Part shown: in pieces, positions 4,101-38,073 of the stretch
Position numbering within the stretch: the stretch's first letter is position 1
How the letters are laid out: every line of letters begins with the position of its first letter
DNA from: Catajapyx aquilonaris
Lineage: Eukaryota
Reading direction: 5' to 3'
Assembly (NCBI GenBank): GCA_000934665.2
Contig: KZ538795.1
Coordinates: 1-47,214, forward strand
Length of the DNA stretch: 47,214 nucleotides
Notes under the pieces: generated by a model
Databases searched by the model: none
What the model was told of the DNA's origin: nothing
What the model saw: the letters and a program-made list of their open reading frames with translations, nothing else
Program-made: the position numbers and the translations under genes

Positions 4101-5912
4101 CGCTCTCAAGTGAGCATCTTCTGCAAAACGCGTCAGCAGGTGATAACAGCAGAAAGTAGTATGACTGTCTGGGGGCTGCTTCTGATCATGCTTAGCAACT
4201 TCCCGCAAACATATCCAAATTAACATGAAATATTAGCGAAAGATATTTCTTGAACAATACAGGGCGTCCGCAATGAACCTCCTTAGTTTCAACTTGCTGC
4301 CATATTTTCCATTCAATTTTTCATGTTTTTCTGCAAACTCGGGGAAGAAAGGACATGGGGGGTAAGGATGGGGATTTTTAGGGGAGGAGACACGGGTTCA
4401 TGTGCAATGTCGGAATGTGCAGTGTTCCAGGAGGTTAGGTTGCCGGAGGCCTCCAAGGCGTGGGTCAGAGACCCGGTCCTGAGGCAGGCGAAGGGGAACG
4501 CCCAGGCGGGGATCGAACCCGGGACCTTTCACTCAGTAAGCCGAGACGCTGCCAACTCGGCCACCACGCCTCCCCGCTTAGAACCAGTTATTACCCATAG
4601 ACACTGAATTTGTTTGTTTATTGTTGAATGAACCACCGAATACATCATGTAGGGAACAGCACATGCCATATTGGATTGACATTTTGTGCAAGGATAGGGG
4701 TTGCAGGATTTGACTATAACGTTGACCTCATTGACCAATTGTGGTGGTGGTCTCTTTCAGACTTATTTGACCAAGGTCAATTCAGGACCTGCCACAAGTC
4801 CAGCATCAGAAGACGGGGATGGAAGCATGGAGTTATCAGGCAGTGGGTTGAGTTCCCCTTCCAGAACGACCTCTGATTCACGATCAGGACTGACAGGAAA
4901 AGAAGCTAATGGCACTGCAACCCATACAGCAGTGAGGCCACAAGAAAGCACTGGAAAGGGGCAGTGTGAATGCTCCACTTGTGGGAAGAGGGACCGTGAT
5001 CCCATCAATATTACCCACCCAAAGAAGCCCCACAAGAAACCCCTTCAGTTTACCTGCACCATATGTGACAGGAAGTATGCATCGCTACGTAACCTGGAGC
5101 GCCACAATTATCAAATCCACGGGAAAGGAGCAGGAAAGAAATATCAGTGTCACCTGTGTCGCAGATATTACCGCAGTGAAAAGTACCTCACATATCACAG
5201 GCTGCGCATTCACACACGGGATTTGCCATACAAATGTGACACTTGTGAGAAGAGATATCAATGGCGTAGTGAATTAATGGCCCACAAGCGGACGCACAGT
5301 GGAGACCGTGCCTTTGCCTGCAACTTGTGTGACAAGACATATATAACTCGAAGTGGATTACATACTCACAAAATATACATGCACAATAAGCAACCAGCGA
5401 AACAGTGCCAGTGCCCCTCGTGTCCCGAAAAATTTGCAAATAGAGTTGCCTTGATGTATCACAAGAAGAAACATCAGAGGCAGAACAAGCCAAACCAATG
5501 TGCCACTTGCGGGAAGCAGTTCCATTCTTTGAACCAATTAGCAGCACACGAGCGAAGCCACACTTCAGAACGTCCCTATGCCTGCAAATTATGTGACAAG
5601 ACGTATGCCACCCGTGCAGGCTTATATATGCACAATAAAAGAGTCCACACGGAGGGTGGAGGTAAGACAATCCAGTGCAACTTGTGTCCCAAAAAATTTG
5701 CAGTGAAAACCCACCTAACAATTCACATGCGCACTCACACTGGGGAGAAGCCCTTTTCCTGTCTCGTGTGTGGAAAGGGCTTTACTCAGAAGCACCACGT
5801 GGAGCAGCACATGCGCTTCCACATTGGGGAGAGGCCCTTTGTGTGCACCGTGTGCAAGAAGGACTTTCTCATGAAGCACCACCTCCAGAGCCACATGAAG
5901 GCACTGCATTGA
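1193..5912 (+). CDS. C2H2 zinc-finger protein, copy 1 (5' incomplete); exons 1193-1276, 1532-1693, 4761-5912
   Basis: Terminal exon encodes 10 C2H2 fingers with TGEKPF/HTSERPY-type linkers. Acceptor tctctttcag at 4760 is in frame. Two upstream phase-0 exons flanked by AG/GT (VEIQDNEG...HK; VEVQRG...SESSEDE) splice in frame. No start codon identified. Confidence 0.8.
2139..2564. mobile_element. Tc1/mariner-type MITE, ~111-bp TIRs, TA target duplication
   Basis: TA|CAGGGTGAATCTGAACTCAG... at 2139 and its reverse complement ...CAGATTCACCCTG|TA at 2564. Arms 2139-2249 and 2454-2564 are near-identical. Confidence 0.9.
2602..3528. mobile_element. Mariner-derived foldback element made of two inverted 3' halves of a D34D transposase gene
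   Basis: TA|CGAGGAGTGATCAAAAAGTAAGG terminus at both ends. Arms are 2602-3030 and 3100-3528. Each encodes LLH(D/N)N.RP...WEVLPHTPYSPDLALTDYHLF, and the left arm has 34 residues between the two catalytic Asp. Confidence 0.92.
3847..4134. mobile_element. Palindromic (foldback) MITE; second copy starts at 47085
   Basis: gacgtgttttgcagaag...cttctgcaaaacgcgtc is an imperfect palindrome over its whole length, and the same left arm recurs at 47085-47214. Confidence 0.8.
4340..4575 (-). mobile_element. tRNA-derived SINE
   Basis: Minus strand head has A box TGGCCGAGTTGG and B box GGTTCGATCCC (4501-4575), followed by a non-tRNA body. 3' boundary is approximate. Confidence 0.6.
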
Positions 5913-8179
5913 TCACCTTCTGATGAAGCAGCAACAATACAGAGTCTTCTCTGATCAGGAGGTTGGAATGGGGAAGAATTTATTGATGGAGTAGTCAGCA
6001 CTGCTCCGAACTCGGCGTGAGGTTTGGTCCACCTGCACTTTTAAAAAAAATCGAGGTGATATGGTGGAACTGACAACAGGAATGACACACTGCCGCACAG
6101 TGGTACCCCTACCCTGCTTTCATGGACAAAAATCTGAAACTCGTTCGATCTTCGTGAAACTCAGCATATTTATGTTGTTGGAGGTCCACATGCCATTTTT
6201 AGTGGTTTGAGCCCAATATGGACAATTTCGACAAGTTACATACCTGTGTGATAGATACGCACTTATAGGAACAGGTCGAATTTTCAGAGGTATGCCTATG
6301 CAGTCTTTTAAAACTTGAACATAGTTTGAAATTGTCTCTGTGGATGTAAACTGACTTGCCAGTGGAGTATCTGTGGATCAGAAAGAGTTCTTATTTTAAA
6401 ATTAGTGTATGAATGGAACCATATAAACTTGCAGGGACGTTGGTCATCTCCGCGAGTTGATATGGTTCAATAGTTGAGTGGAAAAATGTAAGGGATGTCA
6501 ACATGGCAAAGCACCGCATCCAGTAGCGATACGGCAGTGTTTTATTTTCGCTGGCGGATGTGACGTCATGATTGGGCGCAAACATGGGAGGCCTCGTGAG
6601 CTCTAACCAGGCATCGTAGAGCAATAGAACCTTCACTTCCTTGTACTGGTTTTTAAGAAGGAATCTCGCTACTTGCCGCTTGTGCACCATTTACCGACCA
6701 CCCTGCATATCCAAGCTATCCACCTTACTTGCAGACTCTCTGAGAGACCGGAAAATTTGTGTCATGACATCAGGCATGCACTTTCCTCTTGAAGTGCAGT
6801 ACATTTCGATGCTGATTAAAATAATAATGATATTGGAGAGAAAATAGGTCAAATATTAAAGGACAGCTTTTTATGCCAATGTTTTTGCAAACAGCAATCA
6901 TACTGCAACAAAGTTTCCAGGCCTGACGCAGGTCTCTCCAGTGATGTATGTTGCAACAACAGCATGATGATAATGAAAGTGTTGTTTTTCTGACCATATC
7001 TTGTTGCATTTGAATATTGCACCTCTGGTCAAGTATTCAGTACTCTCCTGTGCATATCAAACATGTACAGACGATCACCCGACAAGAATAACATGAATCA
7101 GAACTTTATTCCAAAAATGAACATGGCATGAAAATAGCACTGAGCGATTACCACCTCTCCATGCACATGAGAAAAATGGCTTGCAAGGCAGGGGTCTGAC
7201 CATTGCTATGAATGAATCGCAGCCCAATGTTTTATTCCGGGGGACGTGGAAATGGCAAACTCTTATGACAGAGGCCAGGGATTACTTGCATATACGAGTA
7301 AATGCCAGTAATCCCTGCAGAGGGATACAAGATCTTGTGTGGCTCGATGACAGATGCTGCAATATGGTTGGAAACTATGTTGATAAAAATTTTTTAATGC
7401 TCAGGCATTCAGGTGTATACCTAGTACTGTAATAAAAATCCTGGATGGAAGGCATCGTTGTTTCTCTAATAAGAACAGAATGCAAGTTACTTTCTGGTCG
7501 ACCAAATTGAATTACTCTTTGGGTGAAGTAGTTTAGTTGATTTTTTTTCCTGAAAGCATTGGCTTGACAGTGTCACATCGGACACAGACTGGTGATGGGC
7601 ACATATCTTGTCAGGCCTGTTGGATCCCACTTCCACTTATCAAAACCTTTGAAGCAAGCTGGATGTGTAGAGTTGGGCAACACAACACATGAATGAATAT
7701 AGCTGCCAACATTATTTTTTATATTTTAATTTGTGTAGTACTTTGGCCAAATTGTGCACCTAAATGTATCTGTCAAATCAGAGAAGTTGGCATGTAAACC
7801 TAACTGGATCTCAGCAGTAGGGAAATGTGAAATGAAGTTGCCTAAAGAGCCAGAGCCAGAGAAAAACAGTTTGGTCCTATATGCATATGTCTACCTTGTT
7901 GTGGCCCGGCCTCCCTTCCCTTCTGTACTTAAGACGGAAAAAAAATTTATTTGGAGCATTTTGGAGAACGTCCCACGAGGGTGTCCCATTTTGGTGGTTG
8001 TCACCATTTGGCAACATGAGTTGCGAGATAGGCTACTGTTGTTTGTTTGTTTGTTGTTGGAGCAAGCACCAAATTAATAGAGAACAGCACATTCCAAATT
8101 CGATTGACATTTTGTGCGAGACTACAGATTACGGGATTTGATTATAACATTGACCCACTGTGGTTGTTTTCTTTTCCAG

Positions 8180-9304
8180 CCTTGCTTGGCCGAGGTCAAT
8201 TCAGGTCAAGCGACAAGTCCAGCATCAGAAGACGGGGATGGAAGCATGGAGTTATCAGGCAGTGGGTTGGGTTCCCGTTGCAGAACCACCTCTGATTCAC
8301 GGTCGGGACTGACAGGGAAAGAAGCTAATGGCACTGCAACCTATACAGCAGAGAGGCCACAAGAATGCACTGGGATGAGGGACCATGATCCCATCAATAT
8401 TACCCGGCCAAAGAAGGGCAACAAGAAACCCCTTCAGTTGACCTGCACCATATGTGACAGGGAGTATGCATCGCTACGTAGCCTGGAGCGCCACAATTAT
8501 CAAATCCACGGGAAGGGAGCAGGAAGGAAATATCAGTGTCACCTGTGTCGCAGATATTACCGCAGTGAAAGGTACCTCACATATCACAGGCTGCGCATTC
8601 ACAAGCGGGATTTGCCATACAAATGTGACATTTGTGACAAGAGATATCAATGGCGTTGTGAATTAAAGACCCACAAGCGGATGCACAGTGGAGACCGTGC
8701 CTTTGCCTGCAACTTGTGTGACAAGACATATATAACTCGAAGTGGATTACATACTCACAAAATATACATGCACAATAAGCAACCAGCCAAGCAGTGCCAG
8801 TGCCCCTCGTGTCCCGAAAAATTTACAAATATAATTGCCTTGAAGTATCACGTGAAGAAACATCAGAGGCGGCAGAACAAGCCAAACCAATGTGCCACTT
8901 GCGGGAAGCAGTTCCATTATTCGAACCAATTAGCAGCACACGAGCGAAGCCACACTTCAGAACGTCCCTATGCCTGCAAATTATGTGAGAAGACATATGC
9001 CACCTGTTCAGGCTTATATACACACAATAAAAGAGTCCACACGGAGGGTGGAGGTAAGACAATCCAGTGCGACTTGTGTCCCACAAAATTTGTATCGAAA
9101 TCCAAACTAACAGTTCACATGCGCACTCACACTGGGGAGAAGCCCTTTTCCTGTCTCGTGTGTGGAAAGGGCTTTACTATGAAGCACCACGTGGAGCAGC
9201 ACATGCGCTTCCACATTGGGGAGAGGCCCTTTGTGTGCACCGTGTGCAAGAAGGACTTTCTCATGAAGCACCACCTCCAGAGCCACATGAAGGCACTGCA
9301 TTGA
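8180..9304 (+). CDS. C2H2 zinc-finger terminal exon, copy 2 (10 fingers)
   Basis: Intact ORF highly similar to 4761-5912, with an in-frame phase-0 acceptor cttttccag at 8179. Flanking intron and 3' sequence are also duplicated (~8040-9440 vs ~4610-6040). Confidence 0.85.
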   Translation, partial: PCLAEVNSGQATSPASEDGDGSMELSGSGLGSRCRTTSDSRSGLTGKEANGTATYTAERPQECTGMRDHDPINITRPKKGNKKPLQLTCTICDREYASLRSLERHNYQIHGKGAGRKYQCHLCRRYYRSERYLTYHRLRIHKRDLPYKCDICDKRYQWRCELKTHKRMHSGDRAFACNLCDKTYITRSGLHTHKIYMHNKQPAKQCQCPSCPEKFTNIIALKYHVKKHQRRQNKPNQCATCGKQFHYSNQLAAHERSHTSERPYACKLCEKTYATCSGLYTHNKRVHTEGGGKTIQCDLCPTKFVSKSKLTVHMRTHTGEKPFSCLVCGKGFTMKHHVEQHMRFHIGERPFVCTVCKKDFLMKHHLQSHMKALH

Positions 9305-12124: not shown

Positions 12125-12610
12125 TCTGTGAATCACAATACACCTCTTTTTACTGTCGACACAATTATGCATATTTTTCACCGCACTGCTTGCATTTTTC
12201 AGTGATTTCTCCACACGCGTCATTACACACTGCACCATACAAGCTAAACAAATCAATTCAGTCAAGTGAGAGCTGGGAAACCTGGAAATGTCGAGGAATT
12301 TTTCCATTAGGTTCGCGAGATACCCTGAGGCAGTCACTGGAGCTACGTACAGTTTGCCCTAAGAAGAAGCCATGGAAAATGCAACTTTTATAAAATGTGT
12401 GTTAATAAGATTCATGTGGTAGTCTGACTATACTGCTTGCAATCGTTTAATTGGTCAAGTAGGCTCAAGTGAAGGCGGTTTTAAGACATTTTCAGGTCAT
12501 ACCATTGCATAATTATTATTAAGCACAAGCTGGGAAAAATAATAATAATGCATCTCTAACAGTGGTGCCTGGTGGTGCCCAAACTATTTAGTAAGTTGGT
12601 TGGGGTTATC

Positions 12611-15600
12611 CTATATACTTGGGGCATCTGGTACTGCATCTGGTACAGCCTCTTCTGGCACCGCTTCTGGAACAGCCTCTTCTGGCACCGCCTCTGGAAC
12701 AGCCTCTTCTGGCACCGCCTCTGGAACAGCCTCTTCTGGCACTGCCTCTGGAACAGCCTCTTCTGGCACAGCTTCTGGTACAGCCTCCTCTGGCACGGCT
12801 TCAGGTACCACCTCTTCTGGCACAGCTTCTGGTACAACCTCTTCTGGCACGGCTTCTGGTACAGCAGCCTCTTCTGGTACGGCTTCTAGCACGGCTTCTG
12901 GTACCGCCTCTGGCACAGCCTCTGGTACATCTACTGGTAAGTCGGTTGGTACGGTGACTGGTAAGTCTGCAGGTGCAGTCACTGGTAAGTCTGGTACATC
13001 GGGTACAGTGACTGGGAGGTCAGGTACAGTTACTGGAAGGTCGGGTACAGTTACTGGTTCATCGGGTACGGTGACTGGGAGGTCGGGTACTGTTACTGGA
13101 AGGTCGGGTACAGTTACTGGGAGCTTTGGTACAGTTACTGGAAGCTCTGGTACGTCTACAGGGAGGTCTGGTACGTCCACTGGAATATCAGGTACGTCTA
13201 CAGGGAGGTCTGGTACGTCTACAGGGAGGTCCGGTACGTCCACTGGAAGATCCGGTACGTCTACAGGGAGGTCTGGTACGTCTACAGGGAGGTCCGGTAC
13301 GTCCACTGGAAGATCCGGTACGTCTACAGGGAGGCCTGGTACGTCTACAGGAAGGTCCGGTACAGTTACTGGAAGGTCTGGTACGTCCACAGGAAGATCC
13401 GGTACAGTTACTGGAACGTCCGGTATGGTTACTGGAAGGTCCGGTACAGTTACTGGTAAGGTAGGTGCGGTTACTGGTAAGTCTGGTAATGTCCCGAGTG
13501 TCATTCCATCGGGGAACGTGAAAGGCAGGTTGTTCAGAAGGGCTCTGCAGGCTTCCTGGATGCACTGAAGGCTTCTCTGTGATTATGTAACAACATTATA
13601 ATTAGGCACAGTTGCAATGCACGCCCCGAATCTGACTAATAAGATATATGCGCAAGTGCAGAATATAATTACCGTACCTCTGCCATTGCTTCACTGACAC
13701 AGATCAGAGCAATTTCGGCCTTCTGGCAACTCGCTTCTCTACCTGAAGACATCAGACCCCGCATGATTAGGAGTGAGCTAACTTTCGAAGCACATGGTGT
13801 ACATGTCGTTTTACTTTAATATCGAGAATAAGTATAGACGCGCTTGACACGGCCGTATAGTGCCTGCGCGTCATCTCGACCGCGTGTGGCGACGAATAAC
13901 GCGTCCATATAATAACTGAACTCTCACCATCCGGTTCAGGCTTCTTCTTGAGACATTCCTGCACGTTGTTCCAGACCGACATGTCCATTCCGCCAGCAAA
14001 GAACCGCGTCTCCAGGTCGGATTTGATCGACGAAATTTGGAAGTCTCCTCCCTGGTCCATCTATTATTTAAAAAAAAAAATATTAATCATGGCCCAACAA
14101 TATAGGATGACCAAAAATTCGAGTGGAAATGCGACACTCTCGACTCACCATGTTCATTTCTTTCCACATGCACAGAACCAGGCACTGGTGGTGGGTGGGG
14201 AATAGATAGCAGCAGATGAGTTAATTAATAAAAATTAAAAATTACGCGCAAATTTATGTGATACCTGTTTACAAGGGCAGACGCGATCGAGACGCGGTCT
14301 TAATTAATGATTTGACATCAATTGGACTCACTGCATGACAAAATTGGGAAGGGCTTTCGTAGTGGTAGACCGCATGCGGCAGCGGTAGGGGCACGCTGCA
14401 CCAGCATAACCCGTGACCTAACCTTCCTTCCCGGCGGATATACGCCTATCCTTCAGCGGATACACGCCTATAGGAAAGTATAGGTAAAAGTACGGGGTCT
14501 CCCTAAAGCGTAGCCCAGAATTGCGCCTCACATCACTCAGATCACTGTGACCACGTCTCGATCGCGTCTGCCCCTCTTCGTGCATGCAATTGAATTAGTG
14601 TGTCAGATTGCAATTTTTGGATCTACGCTGCTGATTTTAAGCAGTTCCTTTGGCACAGAAACTTGTTATCCAATGTATTAGCTGGCTATACTAATATTAG
14701 GTATAGCGTGGACCAGCCTCGGTGCTTGACATTATTATGGAGCCTTCGCAAATTTGACCTGTTTGACCGAATGGCAATATAGTTATTACTCGATCCACGG
14801 CTTCCTTCATGAACTTTTCGTCTTCCTGCTGTGCGCCTGCGCGTCCGAAGCATGCGGTGACGTCATCCTTCCTGCACATGGCGCCCACTATGCAGGGCAT
14901 GGTCAGTCCCTCCTTCTGGCAACACGTCTCCAGGGCTCGTATCGCACCCTCAGTCACCATCTTGCAACCCTGAGGCAATGAGGAAGACCGAGCCGGAATA
15001 ATATACAGCATGCGCGCGCATGGACGCGGCAAGGGCGTAGAAAACGCATGAGAACGCCGCTGAACTCACCCTGGCCACCTCGTGGAAGTGACGGTCCACG
15101 CATTCTTTCGGCCACCCTGGGAAATCCTCGTATTCATCTGCAGGCTCGTTGATTGTTATATAAACCACATTATTTAAAAACACTTAAGTGATATTAATTA
15201 TTATGTTATCTAGGAATATAAGGTGTTACTCTGCCAAGAACTGTCCACGAGGATTAATGTATTTGCCATTTTTATCTCAGAGGCTCATGAGGTTTGACTT
15301 ATATATGACATAATTATCTTACATACTGTTTGATCATTATTTACAATCACGGTTAAATTTACATTATCTGTGTACAAGTGTAATGATTATGCGGACGTTT
15401 CATGACTTTCGGAGCGATTCTGTATTTTCCAGTTCAGGTTTTGAAGATTGTATGAATCACTGTGAAACTACATACGTACCGCCACACATCACAGGTACAG
15501 CACCCTGCAAGATGAGAAAATATGACGTGTTATGTTCACACGAGCGAGCTTCGCTGTCCTTTGGGTGGGTCGTTGCTTCTGGGATCCACCAATCGCAATA

Positions 15601-15747: not shown

Positions 15748-16156
15748 CTTCGTGGACCGATGAGTACTGTTGCTCAGGCTGCAATATAACGATACGATAA
15801 CGACGCTAGCTGTTAACCATCGCGTGTCGCATCACTTCGATTGTTCGGCCTGTAAATCATTCTACTTCCGTCGTCGACGTAACTTCCCGCAGATTATATG
15901 ACAGCTCCAGTAGTTACATCACACGCTCTAAGACACTGCGCGTGTCATCTTGACAGACACCTTCCTGTTTTAGGTAACACATACCTCGCACTGATAAGGA
16001 TCACTAAATAAAAGGACAACATTTGCTCCATGTGCTCTATATATGATCTAAGAGTGGTTCTACATCAGAGTTCCTATAGTACGTGTGATTACCGTTTTAC
16101 AGCTCAGATGAGACTGAACTTGATGACTTTGGCCTCATTGGGGATGTACAGAGAGT

Positions 16157-17742
16157 TCATCCAACTTTGGGCAAGCTGGCTGGAGGATCAGGCAAATCTG
16201 GCTGGGGAACATCGGGAACTTGGGGAACATCAGGAGGATTGGGGACTTCGGGAAGGTTAGAAGCGTCTGGTAGAGGAACTTCGGGGACATCAGGGACTGC
16301 TGGTACTTCAGGGATACCTTCAGGGACTTCGGGGACTTCAGGCAGACCTTCGGGGACTTCTGGTACTTCAGGGAGACCTTCAGGGACTTCTGGTACTTCA
16401 GGGAGACCTTCGGGGACTTCTGGTACACCTTCGGGGAGGTCAGGAACTGTGACTCCTTCAGGAAGACCTTCAGGGATCCCATCGGGAAGTGAGACGGAAT
16501 CGAATGAAGGAGGGGTGAATCCCCCTGGGAAGGTGAATCCCTCGGGAAGAGAGTCTCCGAGGTCTGGAAGATCCACGATTGCCTGACAGGCGTCCGAGAT
16601 GCACTTTTCATTCCTCTGGAAAAGACCGAATCTTGATTGTCTGACGTCCACCAAAAGACAAAGACACCAGAGACTTACTTCAGCAACCGCGTCCGTGCAG
16701 CACATGAGTCCAATCTCAGCCAACTGGCAGGCTTCTCCTCGAGCTAGAAAGTACAGTGTGTGTGTGTGGTCATTTACAAAGGATACTTGGAGCAAACTGG
16801 ACACATGGACTTACTGTCCGATGGGTCCTTGGGCGTGGTGTCGATGCAGTTCTGGACACCATCCCAATCCGATTGTCCCATTTCCCCTCCGAAGAACCTC
16901 TGGGCCATGTCCTGCCTCACGCTGTCCCCAACTATCGAGCCATCTTCGGCCATCTGCAAAGTGACAGTGACCGCAACATTATTTTATGCCGGCAGAAGTT
17001 GGACACGAGCTGCACTCACCAATCCCATGCGTCTCCACATGCACTCGACGAGACACTGAAGATGTTAAAGATCATATGTATAGTTAATGGTAAAAGTTTG
17101 TGTCCTGGTCGACCTCATTTTACACTCATCGAATGGCTGTCTTGTAAGTGACTGACCTGATCTCTGGCTGCACCTATGAAGGCCTCATCTTCCTGCTCGA
17201 CCTCTGACCTTCCCAAGCAGGCAGTGACGTCACCCTTTCTGGCCATGGCCTCGGTTAAACAGGGCATGCTCAGACCCTTCTCCTCGCAGCACGAATCCAG
17301 GGCCGTCGCTGCCCCATCCGTCACCATCTGGCAACCCTGCGCAGGAAAGGTGACCACCAAGGGTCAAAAGGTCACTCTGGATTTGCACTCTCAGCAGCAG
17401 TCTTTTTGGCGACGAAGAAACTCACCCTCATCACGTGATGGAAGAATTTGTCCACGCACTTCTTGGGCATATTCGGAAATTCAGGGTATGCATCTGCTCG
17501 ATCGTTACAAATGCATTAAGTAATTAAGTGATTGAATTAGAAAATAATAATAATAACAATGACAATAATGATAATACCTTCGGATTGTCCCAGCACAGTC
17601 ATCTGCAATTATTTAGAAAGTCGTTAATATTCTTCCTACCAACACCATTTGACAGGGACAGCAGTATAATTATGATGGGAAAAGTTACCAGCAGGCCAAA
17701 CGCTGTGAGGAGAAGCAGCCGGATGAAGAGCGTGGCCATCAT
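16157..17742 (-). CDS. Secreted Cys-rich (OBP-like?) protein B with Pro/Glu repeat tail; exons 17742-17689, 17602-17578, 17493-17426, 17336-17157, 16953-16815, 16743-16679, 16615-16157 (~329 aa)
   Basis: Signal-peptide-like MMATLFIRLLLLTAFGLLMTVLG, all GT-AG in frame, 12 Cys including CQLAEIGLMC and CISDAC, and a (PEGLPEVPEV)n tail. Confidence 0.85.
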
Positions 17743-20831: not shown

Positions 20832-21669
20832 GGTACGGTCGAGTATGTGAGGCGACTGCGCGACACATATGCTCTGTGTATATTATGTGCGCAGGAAGTG
20901 ATCACGTGTGAGTGACAGGGTGAGAAATAATGGCAGCAAAGTAAAAGTGTTGTAAACGCAATGACGTTGAAGGATGTTGCGGAGTTTCCTGCTCATCTCT
21001 ATGGAATTATTTTGTTTGCGTTGCGTGTTCACAGCAGCGCAGAGTCACGCTCATCTCCATTGTCACCCTTGACCAGAATCATCCCCTGAATGTGTCTCAA
21101 GGTTGCCGGAATATATGTGGCACCTAGTGTGCACGCCCATGAAATAATCTAATTAGCACCTTCTCATGAAACTTCAATATGTAGGATTGTAGTGCATGCA
21201 TCTATAATATTAAAATCCTTGCGGGAGTTGGCCGAGCCCTCTGATTGGTCCGCCGCATATTGTTACCGCCACCTCCCCATTGGCCCGCGTTCTACTCATG
21301 CGCAATGGGGTGTAAACAACTCCTGTTGGATTGCCGGGGAAACTGTCTATTCCCCGGCGATATGGTGCGCCGAAAAGGTACCCCAGGCCGTAGGCCTAGA
21401 AAAGAGCGAGCGAAGCGAGTGGTGTGCGAGCGTTTTCCTATAGTAATATTTAAAGATGAATTTTTGATGCACTTGCTTCTCGTCAAGCTGGTTGCTGGGG
21501 TCAACACCAGTGCGTTACGTAGGTAAAGCGGTCAATTAGATCCATAATTAAGCGATCAAGGCGCTGAAAACGCACTATAGCGTAAACGGAAAGCGATTCT
21601 TTCACAGCGAGACACGACCGTGGACAGATGGCGTTTACGCAGCGAGCGCATTTTTCCCCATTTCGCGCT

Positions 21670-21765: not shown

Positions 21766-21973
21766 TGTCAAGAAGGATATTTATATAACAATATTGAAAG
21801 AACGATGGTTATTGTTTTTAGAGGTAATAAGTTATTTTATTTCCCGTTAACTACCTGTTCACATTGTCGATTCTTCAACATTTCCGGTTAGTAGAATTTA
21901 TTCTCCGCTGTAGCGCTTTGTGCAACGTGCATTGTTGGCGTGATTAGTATTGTTGTGCGGGTGGTGATCGCTG

Positions 21974-23869
21974 TCAGACAAGAAGAGGTGTGAGGAAGTT
22001 GTCGGTCAGGAAGTCCACCGACCTCCTGACCTTATCAGCTGCCTGGGCCTTCTGGTGACGCAAGAAGCACTCCTCCTTGATGCAGTTCAGCACGAACTGA
22101 AACAACAGTATTATGCCCAATGGAATAATGTTCTGGCAAACATTTGGAGAACTGCTGATACGTACCACGTGCACTTGTTTCAATGAGCACATCAAGGAGT
22201 GTTCAGCCAACTCGCATCCTGGCTCCCTGGCCGCCACTTCTATAGAGTAAGAAAGCTCATGACACATTGCAGATGTGGCTTAATTTCTTCTTCCGTCAAA
22301 TATGTAAAATTGGACCTGCCTTCTTCGGTGAGATTGGCCCTCCTGAATGGATGGAAGGGCAAAGGGGCGTCCATGCAGGCCTGCATCTCCTTCTTATGGT
22401 CGTCGGTCATGTCCTCTCCCTTACCATCTCTGTTGAAGAAGTGGGTGTTCAGGTAGGCCACGTGCGCCTCCTCCACCATCTTGCCATCGCCGTCCATCTG
22501 CGCATGCGCGGGAGGAAACAGTCATTTCATGCCCTAACCAAGGGAGCATATATACTACATAAGAGGCGCAAACTTCTGTCGGCGCCTTTGATGTTCGCGT
22601 CTCTCTGTTTGGGGGGTTGCCAAGGCTGGCGGCCATTTTGAAGTGTGTGGAACGCCAACGACGTATAAATATAGGGTACAGGCAGAAATAGGGTCCGCCA
22701 TCTTTGATGGTTTTGGCGGCCATGGCAACTACACGGCAGGAACACGCGCGAACCAAAGATGGCGGACCCTATTTTTGCCTGTACCCTATTTATACCTCGT
22801 TGGCGTTCCCCACACTTCAAAATGGCCGCCAGCCTTGGCAACGGCCCCAAACAGAGAGACGCGGAAATCGAATCTTATGTAGTATATACGCCCTGCCCTA
22901 ACCAAACCAACAGACTCGAGTAAAATAGACAATAACTTACGAAACCCATCTTCTGCCAAACGCACCTGACCATACACTGAAATAGAGAATATAGTCGAAT
23001 AATTATTATTATTATTGTCTCCTGGCGAGGAATCTGTCCCAATTATTTCACCTTTTTGGCTACGTCGACAACGAACGTGTTCCAGGTCTCCTCCTCGTCC
23101 TCGATCTCGCTGCACTTCTCCCAGTCTCCTCTTTCGCAGATGGCCAGCAGGAAGCAAGGGAGCTTGATGTCCAGCTCCTTCCCGCATCCTACTATAGCAT
23201 TGGCAGACATCTCAGTCACGACGTTGCAAGCCTGTGTTTATATCGATGATGGGGGAGGATTTACAAAAGAGAATCAAATAGTGAGCCTATACAGTTCGCC
23301 ACGCCTTACCTGAACAACATCGTGAAAATGGTGCTGGACACAGTAACCAATGATGGCTCTCTCTGTTGAATTGCCTGGAAATATTTTAAAATAATAACGC
23401 TCTAGGATTTGAATGTTTGTATAGATATTTTCAATTAAAAATCTGCGAATAAATCACGAGGTAATTGGAGCCCATGTACCTTCCTCAGCTGCGTCGTATT
23501 CCTCGTCCGACACGACGTTGCCATCATCGTCACTCTGCCAGTGGATTGCGTATCAATATTAGCGAGAGTTTTCAAAAAAAAGACACGGCTTGTAAGCAAC
23601 AATACAAGACGCCAACATAATTTTGCGACATTTCAGGGAAGGATGAATAAACTGGATTAGCCTACTTAATTATACTGAAGAGCAAGTAAGCCAGGCTGGC
23701 ACTGTCCGTCGTGGAGTGCAAAAAGTGTCGATCGTGTCGATTGCGACTGCAATAATAACCCACCTTTACCTCTGATCGCGATCGAGACGATGACTCGTCT
23801 CCTTGGACTTACCCTGACCGTGGCCGCGGTGGCCACAAGAAGGAGAAGGATGGCCAAGAGAGTGCTCAT
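21974..23869 (-). CDS. Secreted Cys-rich (OBP-like?) protein D; exons 23869-23813, 23534-23480, 23374-23310, 23231-23052, 22497-22320, 22239-22166, 22096-21974
   Basis: Leader MSTLLAILLLLVATAATVRS. YCVQHHFHDVVQ aligns to ECVDRHFHEVAR of gene A. Has the 180-nt exon seen in A/B, plus CELAEHSLMC and CIKEEC. The exon-5 donor is inferred as GC at 22319. Confidence 0.78.
22542..22893. mobile_element. Foldback element with 10-12-bp TSD (Mutator/MULE-like), in an intron of gene D
   Basis: tgccctaaccaa at 22530-22541 and 22894-22905 flanks a near-complete palindrome with GGG...CCC termini. Confidence 0.8.
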
Positions 23870-24634: not shown

Positions 24635-25636
24635 CTACTCCTTGACCAGCACCTCGTATTCATCATACCGGTGCTCTTCACCTGCGTAGGGGATGTAGCA
24701 TGTCTTGTGACTCGGATGCAGCTGTGAGAAACATGGATTAATTATTATCAATTGGATCTGAGACTCATTGTTTTGAGGCCAACAGTTGAATCTTCCGACC
24801 TTATACCGCATTGTATCACACACATAGTGGAAAGTGTCTGGACACTGATGGACTGACCTTTCCGCAGACCAGGTTCCCGTCGTGTTCAGCCCTGGCCACG
24901 AAGAGCCTCTCCCCGTCGCGGGTACGGCCTCCCTCGACGGCCCCCGACGGAATGTGCCCGTGACATGCCGACACCCACTCGTAACTACTGCTGCCAGTTA
25001 CCAGCACCTACAGCACAGGTGATGGATTAATCACTATGATCCATAACATTAAAGCCCCTACCCTATATAAGGATGTGTATAGGACCATAGAGAAGATCGG
25101 GCACTTCCAGACGTCGTATCGGGTCAGGAGTTGGCTCGTTGGAAAGCTCTCGTCAACAATTGGTCAGGGAAAAATCACGAGAATTGCGAATTTCCCCGCC
25201 GTTTTCGAGCTATGGCCAAATTTAAGATTTTGCACCTTATTTGCCCGGATCCTCCGCCAGACGAGCGCTCCCATCGCCTGAGCCCCCCACTCCCCCTACT
25301 CAATCAACGCGCGGGGATGCCAATTAAGAGGTAAATGAGCTCATCGCGTGCACAGTCATGTCATGTACACAGTACCATCCCTCTTCTCACCTCGTAGGAA
25401 TATTTCTTGTGTTCTCCTCCTCCCCACGAGACGTAGCAGGTGCCGTGGCACGGGTGGACCTTCCCCGGCACGAGGTCCCCCTCGTGGTATGCCCTCCCCA
25501 CGTAGTACTGGTCATCATCTCCGCCGTCCTCTCCTCCGATCACCGCGTCCTCAGGGACGTCTCCTCCTGCTGAAGGGACCCACTCGTCACCATGGTGGTG
25601 ATGGTGGTGGTGGTGATGGTGATGGCGATGGCTCAT
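24635..25636 (-). CDS. DM9-repeat (DUF3421/natterin-like) protein with N-terminal poly-His; exons 25636-25391, 25007-24858, 24721-24635 (160 aa)
   Basis: Two repeats of W...G.(V/I)P..AV.GG....(Y/F)V.RA.H.G.LV.GK.HP.H.TCY...G.EH....YEVLV, with phase-0 GT-AG introns. Confidence 0.9.
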
Positions 25637-27622
25637 TGCTGGTATTAACACAGTGACTGCTCGCGGTGTTCTTGCTCCTTTGCTGTTAGGACGGACGGTG
25701 AAGTACGACAATGCGGGACAATACGTGTATATACATGTCACTGTAACAAAAGCATTAAATGACTGTGGCCTGCTGTGGCCTATCTACTCACCTGGCCCCT
25801 CTAATTTCTAAAATATTGACCTGTCGTGTCGGGTGCTCCTTGACCAAATGATGGGGGTCCACTCACGGGGATCGGCTTTTTATTTCCTTGTATCAGGAAA
25901 ACTGTAGGCTATAGTTGCCTTATCATAAATCGAGTTATCTCATTTGCCTGAAGCAATCCACATGTGTACCNCCCCGCAAATGAAAAGCAAAAAAATACAA
26001 CACGTTCCCGGAAATAATCAGGAGGAAAATGCACCCGAGACAAGATCAGTTCTTGGAATGATACAGGCAGGATGATTGACTATTATTGACATCAAGACGG
26101 GCAAGGACCTCATGTTTACACACTGCTGTACTGTACGTGTGTGCATGGTGAATTATACGCAATGTAACACTGGCAGTTCTTCAGATCTTACAGTGTCGTG
26201 TTGCCTATTGCATCATTATGGCCGTCTTGATGTAAATATTAGTCCGATGATAATAATTATGTATACTCTGCCTATCATTCCAAGAACTGAAGGGCTTGCC
26301 TATAAGGTCATCAGTTTTCCTCCTGATTACAATAAGTGAAGCCTCTTTGTTTTTTTGGTCAATTTTGGGGGGTCAAAACAACACAGTCGTGTCAAAAATG
26401 ATCGAATATGAGTTATGATGACTGCGTCGAAGTAGTTTATAAAAATCTAATCTAGAAAAAAAATATTAGCAGATATGTCAGTCTTTCCGAGACGAATATT
26501 TATACTGTACGTAGAACAACAGCTGCTCTAAAATGATGTTATGTCTACCATTATAAGGGAGTAGCCAGGGAGGGTTACAATGAGGTTTCTTCAATGCTGT
26601 TTCATTATTAGTCACTGTCACCATCCTGGTGACTGTCAAACTCACTCGTCAGTCACGGATGCCACTGACGGACCATGAACTCATAAGAGCAGTGGGTGGG
26701 AAGATGTGTGTAGGAGTCAATGAGTTCATTCTCTGATAATGACATTGAAATCGTGAATTTTTATGGAGCATAACGAAAAGTGGAACATTTTGCATTATTC
26801 TTCCACCTTTTACATAAGAACAGCATAACAACGGCATAGTTACTTTGTAAATATCTCCTCCGATTCCTTTGCAGGATGGTGCGGCCATCACACTATGTAG
26901 ATACACATTGCTTCACTTACCATGTGCTTGATACAATCTCTTACACCAACTAGGTGGTGCACCACCCAAGTCCAACTTGCCCAGCTTTGGAGCACACCTT
27001 TATTGAGAGCTGTCTCACGACTGCGGGACATTTTTTTGGTGTAATAAGAGGAGCAAACTGCATCTCAAAGGACATGTTTAATGCTTGCCATTAATTCCAT
27101 GGAAATCCACCCTTCCCGCCCTAAAAAAAAACATAAGTTAAAAAAAAGGGGGGAAAGGTGGAGAGAAATACACATCTTATGTAACCCCGACTAGAACCCA
27201 AAAGCACAGCTTCGGGCGAAGAAAACAATGAACAAAGGGAGTCACCCAAAACTGGCCAACCAATCGGATTAAGCATCTCTCTCTCTCGACACGCGGACTT
27301 GCACAAACCAGGGATGGCTCAATATTGGTAATAATACATAATAAGAGGATTAGTGTTAATCATACTGTAATTAAATCACTCCTGCGACAAAGCACCTAAC
27401 TCGCTACTTTCGAACCGAAAGGGCAGCAGTTAAGCTGGGCAATCAAACATCCATGCATAATAGTTGTATGTGTGTATATACTTTTTTCCATGATAATAAT
27501 TCCGCCCTTCCCTATTTTAAAAAGACAAAAAAAAAAAAAAATTGCATGTAAACCACCACCACCACTGGTACAAAAAAAGGTAGTCCCCCTCCCACATTTC
27601 GATGTATCTCCCAGTGTGGCGA

Positions 27623-36909: not shown

Positions 36910-37398
36910 TTAGTCACTGGAACAGTCTCCTCCACTGCAGCTGTCCTCTTCCTGTTCCTGGAGCCTCTGCAGCTCTCCAAGCTTGTTTGCCAGCTGCTGT
37001 CCAAACGCTTGCTGGAACATGGGGCTGATGTGGTTGAGCAAGGCGTATGGGGTCTCGTAGTAAGTGGACTCCTCCTCCGACCCCAGCTCGCCTCCAGACA
37101 GCCTGAACCCGCTTGGCCCCACCTCGATGGAGTAGCTTGCCCCTTCCAGGGTGGTCAGGTCCAAATGAGCCAGAGGGTCCCCTGGGCTCCCACCTTGCAC
37201 CGTCACCTCCCTGACCCCAAAGGCAATGTCCCGGAGCACACTCTCAGCTTCCTCCAGCCACTCCTGGCACCCCACAATCTCAGGGTCTGCCATGGGTGGG
37301 GCGGCACCACCTGCCTCAGGAGATGACCCCGGAGGTGAAGGGGAGGTCAAGCTGCTGCACCCATCTTCCTCCTCCTCCTCTTCCCCTTTGCCTCTCAT
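36910..37398 (-). CDS. GSKIP: GSK3-beta interaction protein (DUF727)
   Basis: EAESVLRDIAFGV, LTTLEG, YETPYALLNHISPMFQQAFGQQLANKL. The first ATG after the acceptor at 37414 was chosen as start. Confidence 0.9.
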   Translation of the reverse strand: MRGKGEEEEEEDGCSSLTSPSPPGSSPEAGGAAPPMADPEIVGCQEWLEEAESVLRDIAFGVREVTVQGGSPGDPLAHLDLTTLEGASYSIEVGPSGFRLSGGELGSEEESTYYETPYALLNHISPMFQQAFGQQLANKLGELQRLQEQEEDSCSGGDCSSD

Positions 37399-37568
37399 TA
37401 TCCAGGAGGAGGCCTGGAAATTGACAGTTGTTAACACTCGTACATGTTGTTCAGTAAAAATACTCGTATGTCAGCATTAAAATGGATGCAATTTGTTTAC
37501 GTGTGAGCTCTGAACATGAAGGGCATTCGGGACGCACGTAACAATAGCGTTCTACAGCTCCCAAACGA

Positions 37569-37719
37569 TCAAATCGCTCTCATGTACACCTCCTCCTTCT
37601 TCCTTGGCCTGTACGTTGGGTCAAAGGTCGTGGGGTCGACCAGAAGGGTGTCGCTAAGACAGGAAAGAAGGGCAATCCAACCAGAGAGGAAAGAAAGATG
37701 ATCACAAGGGGGCCGCCAT
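37569..37719 (-). CDS. Putative spliced upstream ORF of GSKIP, 32 aa (MAAPFDTLLVDPTTFDPTYRPRKKEEVYMRAI); exons 37719-37706, 37653-37569
   Basis: ATG in agcATGG context, a 52-nt pyrimidine-rich GT-AG intron, and codons mostly ending in G/C. Confidence 0.55.
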
Positions 37720-37989
37720 GCTCGACTCCAAGGTTGACAGATTCACGCAGCAAGGACGCAGGGTGACCAGACCAATCCGCACCCTATTTCAGCTCGACCC
37801 TGGGCTGACCATATATGGCTAGACCGTGGCTGAAAACGGTGATAACCAACCAGCCAATCAGGAGGCGGGCACATCCTGATCTACCACCAGGGAAAAAGCC
37901 GTAACTGCAAAATTGCCCCGATCTGCCGTTATAGTGGCTATTTATAATAATTATTACTGTAGCATTTATCAAATTGTTGTTGTTGTTGC

Positions 37990-38073
37990 TACTAGAAAAA
38001 GGAGAGCGAAGCGAGTGGTTTTTCTACGCCTGCGCCATAGAAAAATGCGAGCGAAGCGAGGGTTTTTCTCTAG
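37990..38073 (+). mobile_element. Helitron-like 3' end (duplicated GAGCGAAGCGAG hairpin motif then CTAG|T); related motif at ~21400-21445
   Basis: tagaaaaa...gagcgaagcgag...tttttcta occurs twice, ending in ctagt. Confidence 0.4.

Follow-up and report, generated by a model that had tools for sequence, protein, structure and literature searches.

The analyzed window, a 47,214-nt stretch of contig KZ538795.1 from the compact, 286-Mb genome of Catajapyx aquilonaris, carries on its minus strand the coding sequence of GSKIP (36910..37398), which encodes 162 aa if read from ATG 37398 and 127 aa if the start is ATG 37293. The gene, which we take to be a GSK3/PKA scaffold, had been named in an earlier reading by a model from the DNA letters (hereafter the sequence-only reading), and this identity holds. 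The product matched PF05303 with an E value of 2e-18 (66.9 bits versus a curated cut-off of 20.9) and PDB entry 1sgo with an E value of 9e-10; a single locus was found in the genome; and Atlas GSKIP clusters matched at 0.93, with chordate and arthropod GSKIPs as the nearest. Codons 2-35 were not coding-like (score -0.16), so that translation of GSKIP may begin at ATG 37293. Four neighboring genes served as controls, namely a CAP gene, a 3-hydroxyacyl-CoA dehydrogenase gene, a ubiquitin-like gene (presumably Elongin B) and a gene for a membrane protein (presumably TMEM241-like) that gave no Pfam hit. An RNA contig over 36141-37268 spans the 3' parts of both the plus-strand membrane-protein gene and GSKIP; the convergent 3' UTRs therefore probably overlap.

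Upstream of GSKIP on the same strand, a split open reading frame of 32 codons can be read from ATG 37719 across a GT at 37705 and an AG ending at 37654 to a TGA ending at 37569. The start, splice ends, length, stop and peptide proposed for it in the sequence-only reading all matched the DNA exactly. Its putative first coding exon (37706..37719) consists of 14 nt, or four codons and two bases, and the GT-AG interval that would form the intron (37654..37705) is 52 nt long. The second segment (37569..37653) comprises one base, 27 codons with biased usage and the TGA, and contains an in-frame ATG at 37583 that opens four codons. With the 52 nt unspliced, ATG 37719 yields five codons only (37702..37719). 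The start codon lies in the context GAGCATGGCGGC (37712..37723), and the 5' end of the RNA contig described below is one base away. Near the end of the codon-biased segment, a weak alternative donor, GAG/GTGTAC (37584..37589), would fuse the segment in frame with GSKIP to give 193 aa; its use was not seen in RNA (one assembly).

The rest of the leader exon (37501..37568) is 68 nt long, is not coding-like and contains ATG 37526 and ATG 37517. It is followed by an 87-nt leader intron (37414..37500, CAC/GTAAAC ... CAG), across which a 13-codon uORF would run from ATG 37526 (37398..37526). The TAA of this uORF overlaps the first GSKIP ATG as TAATG, and its codon usage is not coding-like. Predicted folding of the leader was no better than that of shuffled sequences (z -0.10).

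Several further features lie at or around the locus. Contig C17450 (1-483) repeats the GSKIP promoter region at 37718-37933, differing at one base of 216 nt, and is probably the other allele of that region; its copy carries a self-complementary, MITE-like insertion of ~200 nt, ~215 nt above ATG 37719. At 38020-38069 lies a short repeated element that four contigs from elsewhere match with loose ends, and a stretch near 21400-21420 resembles it. On the minus strand, several coding-like exons at 21974-23237 apparently belong to an unannotated gene, for which Pfam gave a sub-threshold hint of an ATG5 helical bundle (E 0.012); an intron of this gene holds, at 22600-22860, copies of a repeated element with motifs of the AAGATGGCGG type. 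Long frames of short tandem repeats at 12549-13595 and 16089-16810 are open on both strands (on the minus strand, the repeats are of the VPDLPV and VPEVPEG types) and possibly encode paralogous repeat proteins. Two closely related C2H2 zinc-finger-like ORFs, assigned to that family by sequence pattern, stand in tandem at 4698-5912 and 8108-9304, and a DM9-repeat protein with an N-terminal histidine run is encoded at 25361-25783 (minus strand).

RNA over the leader and the 52-nt interval

One sequencing run covers the region, available as assembled contigs instead of reads, which can show that a form is present but cannot show that it is absent. We treated the run as RNA because its contigs skip four neighboring introns. 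The leader contig is 303 nt long at a depth of 7.2, and its first 221 letters align to 37720-37500 without gaps. The remaining 83 letters, together with the bin depths, fit 37413-37331, inside GSKIP, and by length arithmetic the 87-nt intron has been removed and the leader exon joined to GSKIP. The join of donor 37500 to acceptor 37414, foreseen in the sequence-only reading, is thus borne out indirectly, by length and depth, as the alignment row over the joint was dropped at a repeat. The same contig, one from one run, places the exon on the GSKIP transcript.

That the 52-nt interval is spliced, as the same reading had it, has so far found no support, and its retention bears on a refuting condition which that reading had itself named. 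The interval is retained in the leader contig, whose alignment there shows no gaps and no differing letters, in the very run in which four neighboring introns were removed, and the 37706/37653 joint was absent from nine of nine aligned contigs, a count that cannot prove absence. Six alignment pieces that were not displayed are explicable without a further contig, as one Elongin B exon, the GSKIP tail and four repeat pieces. There is therefore a processed RNA that keeps the 52 nt. The contig begins 15 nt above the donor, so that the spliced branch would measure 45-77 nt versus 97 nt for the retained one. Assemblers may prune the shorter of two branches as a tip, and the spliced form could have been lost from the assembly in this way. 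Because contigs drop variants, the retained 52 nt count against the spliced model without settling the matter.

The interval was then compared with 10 control introns, four of them seen as RNA joints, one inferred from RNA and five from the reading frame. Its length suits introns of this genome: those shown by RNA nearby measure 53, 57, 59 and 63 nt, and a frame-inferred intron of the CAP gene is likewise 52 nt. It is 75% pyrimidine and ends in a good TAG acceptor. The donor, CTT/GTGATC, is weak, agreeing with the consensus at 5/9 positions (control range 5-8), a value shared by two of the 10 controls. An nTnAy branch motif was not found at -12 to -40, where nine of the 10 controls carry one; branch-like motifs occur only at -46 and -49.

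Codon usage and readings of the exon

G or C occupies 24 of the 30 synonymous third positions of the 32-codon ORF, compared to 109/158 in GSKIP and 91/111, 211/289, 214/287 and 304/413 in the four neighboring genes of the window, in line with the likeness to neighboring genes noted earlier from the letters. A synonymous-codon model was trained on the five genes of the window, each being left out in turn for its own score. Per codon, the second exon scored +0.25, within the 0.12-0.37 spanned by the five left-out genes, while the same frame scored -0.31 within the 52 nt and -0.46 past the stop; usage is poor in the three codons that directly precede the TGA. Among 10,000 dinucleotide shuffles of this exon, each scored at the best of three frames, 19 reached its codon-usage score and 157 its third-position G/C content. 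When the search admitted any ATG-to-stop frame of 20-60 codons, either uninterrupted or split by one intron of 48-100 nt, the spliced 32-codon frame ranked first among the leader ORFs and none of 300 shuffled leaders equaled its score.

Two of 107 other segments of the window that were presumed non-coding (segments with N excluded) also reached the score of the 32-codon ORF. Both, at ATG 23210 and ATG 22192, resemble exons of an unannotated gene; since Pfam does not confirm a gene there, they were kept in the background count. Of 1155 overlapping windows of true coding sequence, 44% reached the score, which gives a likelihood ratio for coding of ~20, a figure that is approximate owing to the small training set and the overlap of the coding windows. 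The codon bias of the exon exceeds chance. The earlier claim of a coding uORF accordingly stands in part: the coding-like signal is there, and is missing both within the 52 nt and past the stop, whereas the removal of the 52 nt that the claim needs does not have such backing.

Relatives of the peptide were sought with the unspliced genomic frame as query (27-57 aa, lacking the first five residues and in most cases extended by 4-30 residues of intron or leader translation). GSKIP itself drew no match in some searches, which marks the sensitivity as low, and at that level no peptide homologue beyond the locus itself was found in the animal's own genome, 1.84 billion representatives, the Atlas, PDB or Pfam, nor among 5.8 billion proteins of 22-70 aa. 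The conservation proposed for the peptide in the sequence-only reading so far lacks support from these searches. Exact look-up of the peptide frame gave 0/3. One metagenome match (one locus from 597 stretches) covered 9 residues upstream of the exon and was dismissed as chance. In six supplementary files on Tribolium small ORFs from PMC13670568, the peptide motifs were absent except for TFDP, which occurred in unrelated entries. Mention of a GSKIP uORF, dicistronic mRNA or microprotein was not found in the part of the literature searched.

Our preferred reading, held tentatively and at slightly short of an even chance, is that the exon at 37653-37569 is real coding sequence of an upstream cistron of ~32 aa that shares one mRNA with GSKIP. 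Ribosomes would begin at the cap-proximal ATG 37719. With the weak 52-nt intron removed, they would translate the 32-aa peptide and terminate 83 nt short of the first GSKIP ATG; with the 52 nt kept, they would translate five residues and terminate 216 nt short of it. Further uORFs are present in both the spliced and the retained forms, and translation of GSKIP would rely on reinitiation or on leaky scanning past them. A short uORF followed by a long spacer favors reinitiation, and retention would therefore favor GSKIP and splicing the peptide. The peptide itself would most likely act either on its own, as a microprotein, or as a brake on the translation of GSKIP. A more specific version appears improbable to us, in which an unnamed, cap-side microprotein of 32 aa is conserved across arthropods and retention of the 52 nt is a switch, the spliced form damping GSKIP and the retained form permitting reinitiation on GSKIP, whose first ATG the stop of the second uORF also overlaps. 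The prior for the preferred reading is low because conserved-peptide uORFs occur in ~0.3% of fly genes, according to the available text of PMC2276209.

Were the exon instead part of an ordinary non-coding leader, the 52 nt would be pyrimidine-rich UTR, the codon bias would have arisen by chance, ATG 37719 would sit within a YY1-like promoter motif and GSKIP would be tuned by tiny uORFs of 5, 4, 13 and 10 codons. This explanation, the main rival and in our view somewhat less likely than the preferred reading, matches the RNA form actually seen and is the best fit to the RNA. The weak donor, the lack of a well-placed branch motif and the peptide without a homologue in the searches all agree with it, the window contains 23 occurrences of the motif around the ATG with two mismatches or fewer, and upstream AUGs occur in ~43% of fly genes (PMC2276209, available text). 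It has to set aside, however, a codon signal that is improbable by both shuffling tests (19/10,000 and 0/300) and is missing on either side of the exon segment, leaving it as a one-in-fifty event or rarer, and the RNA form it matches is one whose spliced counterpart, at 45-77 versus 97 nt, could be pruned in assembly as described above. Both the codon signal and the retained 52 nt would be accounted for if the exon were coding, now or formerly, and had been modeled wrongly, either because an upstream donor feeds the acceptor at 37654 or because the exon is a relic of a decaying small gene. ATG 37874 and ATG 37812 would give 32-70 aa in frame, ten in-frame pairs of ATG and donor besides the modeled one occur in 38300-37660 (some of the donors ending in G), and branch-like motifs confined to -46 and -49 would suit a longer intron. 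Yet the RNA contig begins at 37720 and there is no cover at 37748-37938, which counts only weakly, and ATTGG (CCAAT-like) boxes make the upstream stretch look promoter-like; we consider this explanation unlikely.

The exon could also encode an alternative N-terminal extension of GSKIP, of 193 aa in total, if the 52-nt intron were removed and donor 37589 were joined to acceptor 37414. That join is in frame and free of stops, the codon signal fades over the three codons leading up to the TGA, and the five codons preceding the GSKIP ATG score +0.41. Against this, the RNA takes donor 37500 instead of 37589, the latter is weak, a frame match is expected by chance in one case out of three, and GSKIP codons 2-35 score -0.16; an extension of this kind is very improbable.

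If the preferred reading of an upstream cistron is correct, the locus contains an unannotated microprotein that gene finders missed because it is short and split. It would also provide a testable case of intron retention selecting between two products of one mRNA, as well as a handle on the dosage of GSKIP, in its presumed capacity as a GSK3/PKA scaffold. Since the class is already well known from flies, this would add a further member and no new mechanism. Should the 52-nt intron be unspliced, what remains is an ordinary uORF-bearing leader.

Comparison with known systems

The start context was compared with the TISU element, a sequence of consensus SAASATGGCGGC described in mammals, where it starts the main ORF (PMC3177215, available part). 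The candidate's GAGCATGGCGGC matches this mammalian TISU/YY1 consensus at 11 of 12 positions. TISU-started mRNAs are further marked by a very short 5' UTR; the RNA contig here starts 1 nt above ATG 37719, and contigs cannot show where a transcript starts. Five TISU-like sites with one mismatch, the candidate's included, occur in the window, and 23 when up to two mismatches are allowed. Since five sites share this degree of match and promoter elements of the YY1 type have the same motif, the match does not prove a selected start.

Peptides of the tarsal-less/polished rice/mille-pattes gene carry the motif LDPTGXY (PMC1852585, in the portion available). The likeness of the candidate to them is superficial, consisting of the 32-aa length and two DPT motifs; unlike them, it is spliced in the model, precedes a long ORF and lacks LDPTGXY. 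Identity with this gene was rejected: the LDPTGXY pattern has 10 matches in the genome, none of them at the candidate locus, and the GSKIP leader does not contain repeated type-A small ORFs. Such a pair is found on contig C135 instead, where two small ORFs that each end in LDPTGXY lie 72 nt apart (21800-22600). This pair is likely the tarsal-less/polished rice/mille-pattes gene of this genome, and a two-ORF layout is reported for crustaceans and primitive insects in the same portion of PMC1852585.

Closer in arrangement are the conserved-peptide uORFs of Drosophila (Hayden and Bosco 2008, PMC2276209), which are described in the available text as 15-179 aa long and defined by a cross-species Ka/Ks below 1. 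The candidate resembles them as a small ORF 5' of a main ORF on one mRNA, its 32 aa falling within that range. Membership of their class would require conservation of the peptide across species. The motif DPTY was absent from three supplement files of that article, and FDP and YRP were unrelated in the four of 15 occurrences examined.

Compared to the dicistronic loci of FlyBase (PMC4528330), the first ORF of the candidate needs an intron so far unseen as spliced and belongs to no known family. According to the available text of PMC4528330, 15 of the 65 fly genes with products of 25-45 aa lie in polycistronic loci, and cistrons at polycistronic-only loci are spaced by -34 to 319 nt. The candidate shares with these loci two non-overlapping ORFs on one processed RNA, at a spacing of 83 nt that lies within the fly range. 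A dicistronic mRNA that pairs a small upstream cistron with GSKIP would thus be of a kind already known in arthropods.
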